DNA of 64,000 bases from Bdellovibrionales bacterium. Its GTDB lineage: Bacteria; Bdellovibrionota; Bdellovibrionia; Bdellovibrionales; UBA1609. This document shows positions 28,042 to 62,794 of the stretch, one piece after another. Both the position numbers and the translations under genes were made by a program. The notes below the pieces were generated by a model, which saw only the letters and a program-made list of their open reading frames with translations, had not been told where the DNA came from and searched no databases. Every line of letters begins with the position of its first letter. Within the stretch, counting starts at the first letter, position 1. The DNA lies in the NCBI GenBank assembly GCA_965219095.1, contig CBDCMT010000001.1, forward strand, positions 1,280,001 to 1,344,000, written 5' to 3'.

Positions 28042-31000
28042 CCTGAGTTCGTGCTCAAAAATGTACACTACAGACGGACGTTTTTTTGACAAGACTTTTT
28101 CCAATAGATCTTAGTATTTTTTCTTGAACTTTATTCAAAGCTACTGTTTTGATAAGTCTAGTTTTATTTTTTCGGTCATAAAGATAGACATTATACATGC
28201 TACCGAGTTCTTCAAGAGCTTCCTCTGGAGACATCTGCATCTTTTCAAGCTTCATTTTTAGAATTGAAAGTATCAGACAAGATAAATAGCATATAAAGAC
28301 ATGTGATTGAACTCTGTTGTAAAGCCAATGACGAATTGGTCTCAAATTTGTTATTCCCTTTAAGGTCCTAAAAGATTTTTCAATTATCTCTTTCTTATAG
28401 TACAAATTAACAATATCTTTTGTAGAGATCTTTTTTGTAGAAAATATACAAGAGTAACCATCAAACTCAGATTCTAAATTCAACCGATCTCTTCTTAATC
28501 TTCCTGTTGGAGTAAGGTATTTTTCCAAACCTGGTTTTATATTTTTATTTTTGCCTCCTCAAAAGAATCTGTGGGTTCCCGGAGGTTCTGGCAGTTTTCC
28601 AAGGTTATGATATAAGGCGATTTTTATAGCTTTAGAGGTTCTAAAGCCGTAAGATTTTCTCATAGTGAGTTTTACTTTGTTGTTTAAACCCTCTACAATC
28701 CCTGGAGAAGGTTTTTTTAGCCTTGAAGTAATTAAGAATAAGTAGCTTATGTCTTCGTATGGTTTTTGCTTTTCTTTTCATAGGTTCAATTTTTGAAAGC
28801 ATGACTCGTCTCGTCCAACTGTCTATAAATTTACCAGCCCAAGTTGGTGAAACATAGGTCCATAACTGTCGGAAGTCTTCTTTTAAAAGATAACAGAGGA
28901 TACTTTTTAAATTGTACTGTATTAAATGCCTTAATTTTACTTTTTCATAAGATTTTAAATTTTCTGCATTTTTTAACAAGGGCCATCTAGCTTTTGTTAA
29001 AAGGGGTTCATACCCGTCTTCTTTCATTTTTTTGTGTTCTGAAGCTCTCACTTCGTCTAAAGCCTTATTGAGTCTTGCTACGATATGAAACCGATCTAAT
29101 ATGTGTAAAGCTCCACTTGCCCTCTCCTTTATGACTTTTAAATAAGGCTTCCACATATCAGAACACACAAACCGTATATCTTTTGACTTCTCTCCTAGTA
29201 AATCAAAGAATTTTCTAAAACTCTTTTCTGTTCTTTTTTCTCCTATCCATAGCAAACGAACACTTTCTTTGCTTATTTCATAGACTAAGGTGAGATACTG
29301 ATGGTTCTTTTTCCATTGTATTTCATCTACACCTATAGCTTGTATTCCCTTTAAAACCCTTTGTTTTAAACCATATTCTACGACCCATTCTACCGAAGCA
29401 TAGACCTGATTCCAACTGACATGAAACTTACAAGAAACCTCTTTCCAAGACAGGTGACGACACCAGTCTGCTAAATACTTCATGTAAAAGATCGTTAAAC
29501 TCTTCTTACCATCGGCCCAAGGTAAATGTTCAACTTTTACCCCACAGCAAGGACAATTAACTCTTCTTACAAAATAAACAAAAAACACCCTGTAACTTAA
29601 AATAGGAAGGGATTCAAAGTCCCGTGATGATTTACTGCTGTCATACACTGAACAGGGCTTCTTACAAACACTACAAAAAGCTTGGCCATTTTTACGAGCC
29701 TTAATAGGAACATTAATTGACTTTCTATCTTTTGAAAAATAAATGTCTCCGTATACAAAAGACTTCCATCTTAAACAATCATTTAGTATAGTCTTCAAAA
29801 GCATCTCTTCCCTCCTTTTTTTTTTTTTTTTGAATAACATTTTAAGGCATCTGGGAAGTAGGTGCTTCTTTTTTAAAATTTTAATGTAACACAGCAAATA
29901 AAAGCAAATAAAATGAATGTTTTTGAGTTCAATCACCGGAGGTGATAGAGGCCAGTAAGGGCCTCAAAGAACTCAAAAATACAAGATAGAATGTCTTACT
30001 CTTACTTTGATTAATATGAGCTCTTTTGGGGGATTTCTACTACTTTTCACCCACAGATTCCCGGGAGGAGCCTTATTTTTAGACAAAAGAATTTGTGCGT
30101 TTGCAATTTCGTCCAAACGAGATTCTCTTATATCTAAAGCTCTCCTTTGATTGTAACAAACAACTAAACGTCCTTTGATTTTTCCAACATTGTGATTAAT
30201 GCTCTGAGCATACAAGGTACCACTTGATAACCTGATGCGATGGGATACATCAACAATAGAGTCTAGCCTTATCATTTTTCTAATCAAATCCTTCTCTTTT
30301 TTTCTGAGAGCAATCCCACAAAGCGTATTCCAGCCCAAATCATTGATTTCATTGAGGTTTCTCTCTGAAAAAATGCCTCTGTCGTAAACAAACATTCCTC
30401 CACTTAGTCCATAGTTTGCAAATCCATCGGATAAACTTAGTAGAGTCCTGCTATCGTGTATGTTTCCACTAAAAGTTTTATGAAACACTGGTATTCCTTC
30501 TTTTTGAGTTGTCACCAAACCAATTTGAATCAAAGGATTTCCACGTTTCCCATCCTTACTCTTTCCTAATTTTCCAAGCTGACATTTGCTACCATAAAGG
30601 TATGTATTGGTAACATCGTACACCAACCCTTTTAGCTCAAGATTGTACCTTTTCTGAACACCTTGAAATATTTTCTTCTGTAAATTTTCTGGATCACTCT
30701 CTAAAGAATCTAGAGCAGAAAGCAAACGACTTTCGGTTAGATCCTCTAAATTTAGCAAAGTGTTTAAATCTGTTCTCTCATACCATTTTGGCATTTTTCT
30801 AAGGCTTTTGTAATCTAAACAGTGAGCATAGACCATGCTTAATATTTCATTGGAGTATTGGCCAAGAGATTTTTGCAAATCTATTTCCCTAGCTATTTTA
30901 TCTAAAACAAGCAAAGGACCATAAACCTTGACCTTTTCTATTTCAAGATCAGATGAACTCATTGAAATTACAGTTTCACCATTCTCTTCCTTCCCGATGT

Positions 31001-34121: not shown

Positions 34122-34169
34122 GCCTCCTCAAAAGAATCTGTGGGTTCCCGGAGGTTCTTTTGAGGAGGC
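34122..34169. mobile_element. 48-bp head-to-head fusion of two ISL3 right ends
   Basis: GCCTCCTCAAAAGAA...TTCTTTTGAGGAGGC palindromic junction. Confidence 0.8.
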
Positions 34170-41488: not shown

Positions 41489-42285
41489 GGGGCCCTACGA
41501 TTTCATATGGTTGGATAAGAGAGGGTAAGAAGTTTGAAGTGAAGACCAATTCAGGCTGGAGAAAAAGAGTGAATGTTTGTGGAGCTATTGAGATCAATAG
41601 TTTGAAGACGGTAGTCAGGAGTTATAAGACAGTTAACCATGTTTCCATATGTGATATGCTCCATCATATTCGCAAGAAGCATCCCGATGAAAAAGAGATT
41701 CATCTTATCTTAGATGGGGCCGGATACAATAGATCGAAGTCTGTCAAGAAGTTAGCGAAAGAGTTGAATATAAAACTTGTTTATCTTCCTCCGTACTCAC
41801 CGAATTTAAATCCTATAGAAAGGCTTTGGAAGTTTATGAAAAAAGAGGTCACGGCGAATCGATATTATGAAAACTATGACGATTTCAAGGGAAGTTTAAG
41901 TCAATTTTTTAGAGGAATACGAAAACACAGATCTAAATTAGAAACTTTGATAACTGATAACTTCTCTATCTTAGGAAACTGAAAACCTAAACGGAAGCAC
42001 TATATGATCTTGATTTGAAGGTTTTTTCGTTTTTGAGTTCAAAAAATGTTCATCAGTGATAAGAGAAATGGATTTTTGAACAAAGTTTTTTGGGTTTATT
42101 TTCTTAGCATAAGAGCTTTGATGAGCTTTTTTTAAAAGATCTTTTGATTTTAAAAAAATACGTTTTTCAAGAATAAGACGTGCTACTTTCTTCTTAGTGT
42201 TTTTATTTTCTTTATTTCTCATAAATGAACCTTTCTTTTTTTATTCTTTTAATTTCTAACTTAAGTGATAGTTTTTTATTTTTTT

Positions 42286-43804
42286 GGCTCCTCCCGGGAA
42301 TCTGTGGGTGAAAAGTAGTAGAAATCCCCCAAAAAGGCTCATATTAATCAAAGTAAGAGTAAGACATCCTATCTTGTATTTTTGAGTTCTTTGAGGCCCT
42401 TACTGGCCTCTATCGCCTTTGGCGATTGAACTCAAAAACATTCATTTTATTTGCTTTTATTTGCTGTGTTACATTAAAATTTTAAAAAAGAAGCACCTAC
42501 TTCCCAGATGCCTTAAAATGTTATTCAAAAAAAAAAAAAGGAGGGAAGAGATGCTTTTGAAGACTATACTAAATGATTGTTTAAGATGGAAGTCTTTTGT
42601 GTACGAAGACATTTATTTTTCAAAAGATAGAAAGTCAATTAATGTTCCTATTAAGGCTCGTAAAAATGGCCAAGCTTTTTGTAGTGTTTGTAAGAAGCCC
42701 TGTTCAGTGTATGACAGCAGTAAATCATCACGGGACTTTGAATCCCTTCCTATTTTAAGTTACAGGGTGTTCTTTGTTTATGCTGTAAGAAGAGTCAATT
42801 GTCCTTGCTGTGGGGTAAAAGTTGAACATTTACCTTGGGCCGATGGTAAGAAGAGTTTAACGATCTTTTACATGAAGTACTTAGCAGACTGGTGTCGTCA
42901 CCTGTCTTGGAAAGAGGTTTCTTGTAAGTTTCATGTCAGTTGGAATCAGGTCTATGCTTCGGTAGAATGGGTCGTAGAATATGGTTTAAAACAAAGGGTT
43001 TTAAAGGGAATACAAGCTATAGGTGTAGATGAAATACAATGGAAAAAGAACCATCAGTATCTCACCTTAGTCTATGAAATAAGCAAAACCCGTGTACGCT
43101 TGTTGTGGATAGGAGAGAAAAGAACAGAAAAGAGTTTTAGAAAATTCTTTGATTTACTAGGAGAGAAGTCAAAAGATATACGGTTTGTGTGTTCTGATAT
43201 GTGGAAGCCTTATTTAAAAGTCATAAAGGAGAGGGCAAGTGGAGCTTTACACATATTAGATCGGTTTCATATCGTAGCAAGACTCAATAAGGCTTTAGAC
43301 GAAGTGAGAGCTTCAGAACACAAAAAAATGAAAGAAGACGGGTATGAACTCCTTTTAACAAAAGCTAGATGGCCCTTGTTAAAAAATGCAGAAAATTTAA
43401 AATCTTATGAAAAAGTAAAATTAAGGCATTTAATACAGTACAATTTAAAAAGTATCCGCTGTTATTTTTTAAAAGAAGACTTCCGACAGTTATGGACCTA
43501 TGTTCCACCAACTTGGGCTGGTAAATTTATAGACAGTTGGACGAGACGAGTCATGCTTTCAAAAATTGAACCTATGAAAAGAAAAGCAAAAACCATACAA
43601 AGACATAAGCTACTTATTCTTAATTACTTCAAGGCTAAAAAAACCTTCTCCTCAGGGATTGTAGAGGGTTTAAACAACAAAGTAAAACTCACTATGAGAA
43701 AATCTTACGGCTTTAGAACCTCTAAAGCTATAAAAATCGCCTTATATCATAACCTTGGAAAACTGCCAGAACCTCCGGGAACCCACAGATTCTTTCGAGG
43801 AGGC
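42286..43804 (+). mobile_element. ISL3-family element; transposase from 42551, stop TGA changed to CGA
   Basis: IRs, 8-bp duplication ATTTTTTT, AGGAGG site before MLLKT. Confidence 0.93.
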
Positions 43805-44887
43805 ATTTTTTTTAACCCTTTAGCTTAAGAGTTTTTAAAAAAGCTGAAATAGGGGTCAGGCAGGTTTTTTAAATTTGCAGAAGATAGCTAAAAAATAAAT
43901 AATTTCAATAAGTTATAACGCTTAAAAATATTTTTTCACTGTGGAGTTCTCATCATCAATTCATCACTTGTTTTTACTCCCTTTTTTGTTTTTTAAAAAC
44001 TACAATCTCTCTTCTCTAAAATGGGCTAAGCTCATTAAATTTTTATCCATGAAATCCTCAAACAGGTATAAAAAATCTTAGAAGGGCTATTTAAAAAAAA
44101 AGGCTTTTTTCTTCATCCATTAAGTTATTTCTTCTTCTTTTTTTAAAAAAAATGTATAAAACAGCTAAATTTCAGGCTTTGAAAGTAGCTTTTTAAAGCT
44201 CTTTGAAGACGATTTTTTGACCTGTAGCTACATAGGATTTGAACCCTGTAAAAACTCTTTTTTATCTTTTAGAGATATAACATTTTCTGTCTATGGCCTC
44301 CTTTTCTTTTATGGAGCGGTTTTTTTAACTTCAAGGGGTTTGCATGGGTGTTTTTTTTTCTTATTTCTTCGAACAAATAGAGCTTATCTTGACCGGACAT
44401 GGAAAATTTCCCCCTCACTATAGGGGAGGTGCTAACCCCTATGGGGGTTAAATTCCTTCTAATTGATTGAATTTCTTAGTTTTTTTGTTTTTTAGCTTCT
44501 GAACTGGAAATGTTTAATTTTTTAGAAATCTTCCCTTCTGTCAAGTCTCATAGAGGGCCATTGGAATCACACTTTTTTTTTACTTGAAAGTAACTGAGAG
44601 TAGATTTTTTTAAGAAGCTGACCTAAAAAACTCATCTTTTAAAGCTGCTTTTGGATTTTCTTTTTGGCACTCCTTAAACCTCACATCGATACGATCCTGA
44701 TTAGAAAGTGTTTCATCTCTTAAGCTCAAATAGGTGATCCTCTGTTTTAAGAGAAAGGGCTTTTTTGAAAATATCTTTGGCTTTAATTTTTCTACTATAA
44801 GGGATTTTATGGGATTTTATGGGATTTTACTAAAAGCTCTTTTAATTTAAAAAAGCTCCATTTAACTTCTCAAATTAGAGCCCCCTC

Positions 44888-60220: not shown

Positions 60221-62794
60221 ACCCGAGTTTCGACTTTTTTCAGGGCTAAAGGCTCTAGCTAATATAAACAAATACCTCAGACTTTTGTAAGATTTTCTTG
60301 AAAAAGCAACTTACAAGAAAAAACACCTTGAGAGTTATAAAAAAACATACAAGGAGGTCTAAGATGTTTAATTCTAATTATATCATATCAATTTATGTTC
60401 TTGTCGATGATTTTTTAACCCCTCTCATACAGCAGCATCCAGAACTGGTTTGCTAAAAATAAAGGAGGTTTTTCTTGTGCTATGTCTCCCAGCGAAATTG
60501 TCACTCTTTATCTTACTTTTCCAAAGTTCTGGCTTTAGGAATTTGCCTCCTCAAAAGAATCTGTGGGTTCCCGGAGGTTCTGGCAGTTTTCCAAGGTTAT
60601 GATATAAGGCGATTTTTATAGCTTTAGAGGTTCTAAAGCCGTAAGATTTTCTCATAGTGAGTTTTACTTTGTTGTTTAAACCCTCTACAATCCCTGAGGA
60701 GAAGGTTTTTTTAGCCTTGAAGTAATTAAGAATAAGTAGCTTATGTCTTCGTATGGTTTTTGCTTCTCTTTTCATAGGTTCAATTTTTGAAAGCATGACT
60801 CGTCTCGTCCAACTGTCTATAAATTTACCAGCCCAAGTTGGTGAAACATAGGTCCATAACTGTCGGAAGTCTTCTTTTAAAAAATAACAGCGGATACTTT
60901 TTAAATTGTACTGTATTAAATGCCTTAATTTTACTTTTTCATAAGATTTTAAATTTTCTGCATTTTTTAACAAGGGCCATCTAGCTTTTGTTAAAAGGGG
61001 TTCATACCCATCTTCTTTCATTTTTTTGTGTTCTGAAGCTCTCACTTCGTCTAAAGCCTTATTGAGTCTTGCTACGATATGAAACCGATCTAATATATTC
61101 AAAGCTTGACTTGCCCTTTCCTTTATTACTTTTAAATAGGGCTTCCACATATCAGAACACACAAACTGTATATCTTTTGACTTCTCTCCTAGTAAATCAA
61201 AAAACTTGTTGAAACTCTCCTCTGTTCTTTTTTCTCCTATCCATAGCAAACGAACACTTTCTTTGCTTATTTCATAGACTAAGGTGAGATACTGATGGTT
61301 CTTTTTCCATTGTATTTCATCTACACCTATAGCTTGTATTCCCTTTAAAACCCTTTGTTTTAAACCATATTCTACGACCCATTCTACCAAAGCATAGACC
61401 TGATTCCAACTGACATGAAACTTACAAGAAACCTCTTTCCAAGACAGGTGACGACACCAGTCAGCTAAGTACTTCATGTAAAAAATTGTTAGGTTTTTCT
61501 TCCCATCTGCCCAAGGTAAATACTCAACTTTTACTCCACAGCAAGAACAATTAACTCTTCTTACAAAATAAACAAAAAACACCCTGTAACTTAAAATAGG
61601 AAGGGATTCAAAGTCCCGTGATGATTTACTGCTGTCATACACTGAACAGGGCTTCTTACAAACACTACAAAAAGCTTGGCCATTTTTACGAGCCTTAATA
61701 GGAACATTAATTGACTTTCTATCTTTTGAAAAATAAATGTCTCCGTATACAAAAGACTTCCATCTTAAACAATCATTTAGTATAGTCTTCAAAAGCATCT
61801 CTTCCCTCCTTTTTTTTTTTTTTTGAATAACATTTTAAGGCATCTGGGAAGTAGGTGCTTCTTTTTTAAAATTTTAATGTAACACAGCAAATAAAAGCAA
61901 ATAAAATGAATGTTTTTGAGTTCAATCACCGGAGGTGATAGAGGCCAGTAAGGGCCTCAAAGAACTCAAAAATACAAGATAGAATGTCTTACTCTTACTT
62001 TGATTAATATGAGCTCTTTTGGGGGATTTCTACTACTTTTCACCCACAGATTCCCGGGAGGAGCCAGGAATTTTAAAGCCTTTTACCAGTTTGCAAAAGT
62101 CTATCTTAAATCTTATTTTCCTAAAATGTTGTCTTACTCCCGATTTGTGAACATCAAAAAAGACATGGCTTTTTTGATGTTTCTTTTCTTGACAAGCCTT
62201 ATGAGTAAAACCACCGGCATATCATTTATTGATTCCACATCGATTTTTCTTCAAAAATAAAAGAATAGGACAAAATAAGGTGTTTCAAAAGTTAGCTAAA
62301 AAGAGGCAAAAGTAGTATGGGCTGGTTCTTCGGATTTAAACTCCATATTGTTATCAATCACCTAGGAGAGCTTTTAAGTTTTACCTTAACTCCGGGAAAT
62401 GTAGATGATCGAAAGCTAAGTTATGGATTTATAGTAAAGGGCTGATGGGAAAACTCTTTGGGGACAGAGGTTATATTTCATCAGATCTTTTTAAACTTCT
62501 TTTAAAGAAGGGAGTTAAGCTTATTACAAACGTCAAATTAAATATGGAGAATAAATTGATTCCCTTATTTGACAAGTTGATGTTGAAAAAACGTTCTGTT
62601 GTGGAGGTTAGTGATTGGAGTGTTAAAAGGAGAGTTTCATCTTGAGCATTCTCGCCATCGTAGCCCACAAAACTTTGTCATCAATCTTTTAGGTACTCTC
62701 ATCTCTTACTTGCTTAAAACCTAAAAAACCCTCCATTCAACTTAAAACTCAAAACAGGAGCTTCTGAACAATATATAAAAGTCGAAACTCGGGT
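60221..62794 (+). mobile_element. IS982-family element, degenerate, interrupted by ISL3
   Basis: IRs ACCCGAGTTTCGACTTTT, 5-bp duplication TATTA; fragments SYSRF, FIDST, GWFFGFKLH, GNVDDR and LFGDRGYIS. Confidence 0.88.
60545..62065 (-). mobile_element. ISL3-family element with intact transposase (60551..61798)
   Basis: IRs, 8-bp duplication AGGAATTT, 415-aa ORF. Confidence 0.95.

Follow-up and report, generated by a model that had tools for sequence, protein, structure and literature searches.

An ISL3 transposon in the window (the whole 64,000-nucleotide stretch of Bdellovibrionales DNA analyzed here) carries in its leader a three-way junction that is a real fold with evolutionarily preserved pairing. 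Judged from sequence comparisons, the junction and an adjacent hairpin, P0, appear to be a structure-conserved passenger, similar to REP and TwoAYGGAY elements, in the left end of the transposon; present evidence suggests neither an attenuator nor a guide. The explanation that we favor, tentatively and at a little under an even chance, is that P0 and the junction (42361-42438) represent a captured and rearranged Bdellovibrionales repeat of this kind, fixed as a passenger inside the ISL3 left end and acting as a REP-like boundary.

The ISL3 element and its copies

ISL3 elements are characterized by terminal inverted repeats and an 8-bp target duplication. The window element belongs to this family by its transposase, which contains a DDE_Tnp_ISL3 domain (PF01610, E 5e-68), by its imperfect 24-bp inverted repeats and by the 8-bp duplication that flanks it (Table 1). 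The leader ahead of the transposase start measures 265 nt, as an earlier note on this DNA had estimated (about 265 bp). The usual transposase stop (43796-43798) is absent from the window copy, and the frame enters the flank (43796-43828).

Genome-wide, the leader core has 106 profile matches, and 59 ISL3 copies are full length, with an intact 415-aa frame in 50 and an 8-bp duplication at 37 of them; the insertion sites are AT-rich, with 8-bp duplications of the ordinary kind. Blocks of linked differences are extensively shuffled among the 59 full copies, which implies recombination between diverged parents, and variants of the module may have spread by recombination among the roughly 100 copies. 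We also noted (i) mini-elements that consist of the ISL3 terminal repeats only (e.g., window 34122-34169), with 45 genome matches for a 48-bp form and 26 for a 38-bp form, and (ii) a short palindrome (42031-42046), 240 bp outside the ISL3, that resembles both outer-stem arms without the interior. Transposases 70-74% identical to that of the window element exist in sequence databases; the 72% locus, L001, has no left end within the upstream DNA at hand and lacks the anti-start arm described below.

Table 1. Features of the window ISL3 element, its leader and two further copies of the junction (window positions)
Feature	Position	Strand	Description
Target duplication	42278-42285 / 43805-43812		8 bp
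ISL3 element	42286-43804	+	1519 bp; PF01610 transposase; flanking 8-bp target duplication
Left terminal inverted repeat	42286-42309	+	
Right terminal inverted repeat	43781-43804	+	
Hairpin P0	42361-42375	either	loop ATCCT; antisense C-AGGAU-G
Three-way junction	42379-42438	either	P1 + P2 + P3
Outer stem P1	42379-42389 / 42428-42438		11 bp
Hairpin P2	42393-42410		6-bp stem
Hairpin P3	42412-42426		6-bp stem; four-base haplotype block at 42415, 42419, 42420 and 42423
Promoter-like site, weak, outward	42444-42472	-	ends 6 nt before P1; 1 found vs 1.2 expected
Anti-start arm	42490-42515	+	predicted pairing with Shine-Dalgarno and AUG (~42538-42556)
Terminator-like hairpin	42513-42491	-	overlaps anti-start arm
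ISL3 transposase	42551-43828	+	10 codons beyond the 415-aa norm
Junction in second ISL3 copy	29920-29979	-	A-T/TCC form
Junction in third ISL3 copy	61913-61972	-	A-T/TCC form

Structure and covariation of the leader module

As the earlier note had described, an 11-bp outer stem (P1) encloses two hairpins with 6-bp stems (P2 and P3), and this arrangement is supported by shuffling: the junction has an MFE of -28.2 kcal/mol, with z scores of -7.1 (+ strand) and -8.2 (- strand), and none of 200 shuffles equaled it. A further hairpin, P0, had been missed; its closing pair in the window copy is C.A on the + strand and G.U on the - strand. The commonest genome copies fold better on the - strand than on the + strand.

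Pairing was compared in an alignment (A4) with helices registered by hand in 9 of its 11 rows and the decayed relics L174 and L175 left out. Two Watson-Crick types occur at 8 of the 28 pair positions of this hand-registered alignment, over nine lineages (one position in P0, two in P1, including one double transversion, two in P2 and three in P3); the wider leader alignment, which the earlier note had proposed as a check, thus shows further covariation. Evidence on the folding strand is split, with six wobbles that favor the + strand (G.T) and five that favor the - strand (A.C, that is, G.U on -), besides four other non-canonical states. When the alignment was fitted to the model with all 11 rows, 10 of 28 pairs covaried (0 of 500 shuffles, which ignore relatedness; slid controls, at most 4). 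Relative to random placement, double changes were in excess in the two most diverged relics (p 0.002-0.02) and showed less or no excess in the remaining relics (p 0.016-0.35), these values being uncorrected and dependent on hand registration. The covariation in diverged relics indicates that the fold has been maintained beyond one pair.

Pairing may also be kept by copying at the DNA level. Template switching can produce compensatory changes in one step, without selection (PMC8794818). A short relic in this genome, L178 (183100-183330 of contig C1), has both ISL3 ends and an interior that is inverted between the P1 arms, so DNA-level copying does occur in the junction; loose ends in sequencing runs X2 and X5 are alike. 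The module could be a functionless relic in which template switching and gene conversion keep the pairing and variants hitchhike in haplotype blocks, a reading that also suits the mosaic ISL3 copies and three relatives (L033, L119 and L151) whose leaders of 110-140 nt have no module evident. We judge this unlikely: each of the four helices has compensations, even the outer stem with its arms 38 nt apart; the loop change in P3 is not an inversion; and modules of this class turn up again in unrelated ISL3 lineages, identically placed and oriented. For a captured repeat, as we prefer, the pairing would be kept by selection on the fold, aided by arm-to-arm copying. The earlier proposal of selection on an RNA or single-stranded DNA fold keeps its support in the maintained pairing, but arm-to-arm copying of the kind found in L178 may also have contributed.

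Searches with Rfam gave only chance-level matches in the ISL3 element and its relics, with no family covering the junction, in agreement with its earlier description as an unrecognized structure; the loci of 20 relatives yielded only group II intron pieces at or near cut-offs. Under strict filters, model R1 of the junction module had no match in 97 related loci, 108 genomes of the family, 150 of the phylum or 5 chosen genomes. In the sets searched, no other genome had the exact junction fold, and in this genome every occurrence of the module is associated with ISL3 sequence. The outer-stem pattern matched six hairpins in viral contigs, all unrelated, and plasmid blastn returned short AT-rich matches only. 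No description of a structured ISL3 leader was found in the mostly open-access literature searched; the accessible part of a recent ISL3 paper mentions neither hairpins nor secondary structure (PMC13216065).

The paired change in hairpin P3

The earlier note had singled out a paired change in P3, which reads ATCGCC-TTT-GGCGAT in the window copy and ATCACC-TCC-GGTGAT in the second and third copies; the two forms do differ at four P3 positions. Across the 106 genome matches, 83 have the A-T/TCC state and 9 the G-C/TTT state, while 5 have a single variant and 9 could not be parsed. All five diverged relics examined are G-C at this pair, so the change probably ran from G-C to A-T, the reverse of the direction previously read from the window copy. 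The stem and the loop can change independently (G-C occurs with TCC in one relic, and there is one instance of A-T with TCT), and among genome copies the four differences move as one haplotype block. Since the ISL3 copies are mosaics of diverged blocks, the paired change counts as one inherited event, and an old one. In contigs from four sequencing runs, all junction variants were of types that the genome also contains. The majority form of P3 was also considered as a - strand Shine-Dalgarno sequence and rejected; no start codon follows it, and it is not conserved.

A dispersed repeat of the Bdellovibrionales

The leaders of three sister ISL3 elements (L034, L122 and L146; transposases 61-62% aa) contain three hairpins with AUCC-type loops and a triloop. 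When 151 genomes of the order were searched with a model of these leaders, 10 had matches, in 8 cases outside ISL3 elements. The refined model R3, which was built with matches from 10 of the genomes concerned, matched 19 of the 151, at 1-21 copies each among the 27 candidates at most that were scored per genome, and its seed alignment of 17 rows shows covariation at 15 of 17 pairs. Sites of the repeat include the ends of genes and the neighborhood of Y1 transposases. In other ISL3 lineages it sits immediately interior to the left end, in the orientation of the window module. In L239, a PF01610 ISL3 about 31% identical to that of the window, the module lies about 30 nt inside the putative left end.

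Of the repeat loci, 30 were examined: 10 have a Y1 transposase at most 1.5 kb away (one genus accounts for 8 of these), 4 have an HNH gene nearby and 1 is in an ISL3. The AUCC-loop strand is 3' of a same-strand ORF at 23 of the 27 loci with a left ORF, the ORFs being crude open frames. The Y1 proteins beside repeats score far under the NCBIfam RAYT cut-off, and close to one repeat locus is a TwoAYGGAY match that stays under the cut-off (34.5 bits vs 43). Inverted doublets also occur in the repeat family (L218-L252), whose members frequently precede short genes for Y1 transposases.

The window module appears to resemble this repeat by parts, in its AUCCU-loop and triloop hairpins, P0 included. 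The first 14 nt of ancestral P0 equal the start of hairpin A in the free-standing repeats L219, L220, L228 and L232; the best matches of R3 in relics fall on P2 plus P3 or on P0; and L147, L149, L152 and L153 each carry one hairpin of the repeat module. On the window module itself, R3 produces partial alignments only, of 8-17 bits (listed members, 23-91 bits), with E above 1 genome-wide and no full-length match, and the hairpin order and enclosing stem differ between the two. There is also no free-standing copy of the repeat in this genome as judged with R3. The module seems to act like a member of the class, yet by score it is no member of the repeat family, and we infer its descent from that family from the match by parts.

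We propose that a repeat was captured by this ISL3 lineage and has since been a fixed passenger, immediately interior to its left end. The module would fold in + strand transcripts that enter the ISL3 from neighboring genes, since the free-standing relatives are mostly 3' of genes on that strand, and once folded it may provide a REP-like stable boundary for decay, processing or pausing.

A single-stranded DNA role must also be weighed. Purine triloops closed by C-G are stable in DNA, and the antisense P3 loops are purine triloops, mostly with this closure. That property, the Y1 transposase genes near 10 of the 30 repeat loci and the binding of subterminal hairpins by IS200/IS605 and REP enzymes (PMC6006769) would suit recognition by a Y1/HUH transposase of a structure that has since been orphaned or is used in trans. 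This seems quite improbable given that the genome has no match to PF01797 (Y1), that no hairpin foot in intact copies bears GTAG or GTGG, and that the module stays with ISL3 sequence here.

The left-end slot and the transposase start

To place the module among relatives, 91 of 92 elements were scored (L060 was skipped, and L055, with no upstream DNA, was left out). In 60 of the 91, the space between the left end and the transposase is occupied by a divergent ORF (e.g., L102:612-1073) that encodes about 145 aa and has no above-cut-off match in Pfam or NCBIfam; further relatives have different hairpin sets in this slot. As the module is absent or replaced in relatives, it is not needed across the clade. 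The clade shows a two-part leader, composed of a widely conserved start-codon helix and a swappable slot whose occupant is either a module resembling REP/TwoAYGGAY elements or a divergent gene that lacks annotation. Ten relatives (L036, L043, L049, L069, L074, L095, L100, L109, L111 and L118) carry other structured-looking modules in the slot, eight of which had no Rfam match at cut-off.

The anti-start arm, which is separate from the junction, is predicted to bury the Shine-Dalgarno sequence and the AUG, and it covaries across elements. In an equilibrium folding model, the unpaired probability of the Shine-Dalgarno sequence is 0.18 with or without the junction; as accessibility is unchanged, no control of translation by the junction is predicted. 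Of the 31 elements that have no divergent-ORF match (the window element included), 20 have the arm; it starts 58-80 nt before the AUG, and in those 20, several of which are close kin, its sequence tracks the start context. The arm beat at least 98 of 100 shuffles in 19 of the 31 ORF-less elements vs 10 of the 60 in the ORF group; of the 11 ORF-less elements that lack it, 10 have start contexts like those of the ORF group. In several lineages, the start helix has a C.A mismatch opposite the A of the AUG. We suggest that the arm, rather than the junction, would keep read-in transcripts untranslated; no promoter for the transposase itself was located.

The earlier note had raised the idea of an attenuator or a guide-like RNA. 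While a stable, covarying junction in the leader might be expected of an RNA that governs transposase expression or targeting, such a role is highly improbable: (i) no alternative pairing of the junction with the Shine-Dalgarno sequence or AUG is predicted, (ii) the leader has no terminator-like site on the + strand, (iii) none of the 106 matches has a variable target-matching segment, (iv) the short leaders of several relatives do without the module, and (v) the insertions are of the ordinary kind.

Antisense GGA loops

The consensus of CsrB repeats is C-AGGAU-G (PMC7652899), and the same loop is present antisense in P0 and in P2 of one diverged relic, with GGA in P3. On the - strand, the module might be an outward RNA that offers GGA loops to CsrA, either as a sponge or as a means of CsrA control of outward transcripts. 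The host encodes csrA, TwoAYGGAY has been suggested to bind CsrA (PMC4333381), and at least one such antisense loop occurs in 23 of 30 repeat-family loci. At least one antisense GGA loop is retained in 105 of the 106 genome matches, though the hairpin that carries it changes, and two are retained in 39; linkage, however, may explain this retention. The GGA of P0 is lost in 50 of the 106 matches, and in 47 nothing but a three-base GGA loop, on a stem of 6 bp, remains, whereas CsrA SELEX ligands have six-base loops on short stems (PMC7652899). The host also encodes fliW, as in Csr systems of the protein-antagonist type. Further, the outward promoter match is at chance level and overlaps an 11-bp duplication found in 67 of 106 matches; GGA loops in the leaders of relatives show no strand bias (9 antisense, 7 sense); the free-standing relatives mostly face genes with the other strand; and ATCGT is among the repeat-family loops (5 of 43). 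We thus find the outward RNA doubtful. An extended form, in which ISL3s repeatedly recruited GGA-loop modules for use and outward RNA from about 100 copies titrates CsrA in a FliW-type host, seems improbable; if it were true, a global regulator would be adjusted by the load of transposons, with no Csr small RNA dedicated to the task. The module, which we continue to read as a captured repeat, is a small, high-copy system in which to ask whether CsrA binds such repeats with GGA loops or whether these function as DNA.

Comparison with known systems

Like TwoAYGGAY (RF01731), the window module has two hairpins on a common basal stem and GGA(U) loops on one strand, and the related free-standing repeat is dispersed, with variable copy number and inverted doublets. 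It differs in the lack of an AYGGAY loop (its antisense loops are AGGAU/AGAAU, CAGUAAG-type and GGA/AAA), in the triloop of P3, in the extra hairpin P0 and in its location inside an ISL3; the RF01731 covariance model has no match up to E 10 in this genome and none in the relics. For TwoAYGGAY, Csr/Rsm binding and mobile-element-like spread have only been proposed (10.64898/2026.09.22.753630; PMC4333381; PMC2864571), and the TwoAYGGAY variants in the supplement of the first of these could include the three-hairpin family.

REP sequences are defined by GTAG or GTGG 0-2 nt from the hairpin foot (PMC6006769). The related repeat shares with REP/REPIN sequences and their RAYT (TnpA-REP) an extragenic position, mostly 3' of genes, a conserved structure and frequent proximity to Y1 genes. 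The window module differs from them in its multi-hairpin layout, the lack of a GTAG/GTGG foot and the absence of a Y1 match in the host. A cognate Y1 together with free extragenic copies, absent from this genome, is found for the related repeat in other genomes, and the module ties a dispersed structured repeat to Y1, HNH and ISL3 genes.

Within the ISL3 family, whose regulation has so far been poorly described, the window element is typical in its single transposase of about 415 aa, its terminal inverted repeats and its 8-bp duplication, and unusual in a left-end slot that holds a hairpin module here and the divergent ORF, or little, in relatives. Among other insertion sequences, IS200 has a structured transposase leader, and IS10 and IS50 are protected against read-through. 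The leader of ISPpu9 buries the ribosome-binding site (PMC8450116). The window arm resembles these leaders in that its predicted helix covers the ribosome-binding site together with the start codon; it differs in belonging to an ISL3, in covarying over 47-62% identity and in having the junction outside its helix.
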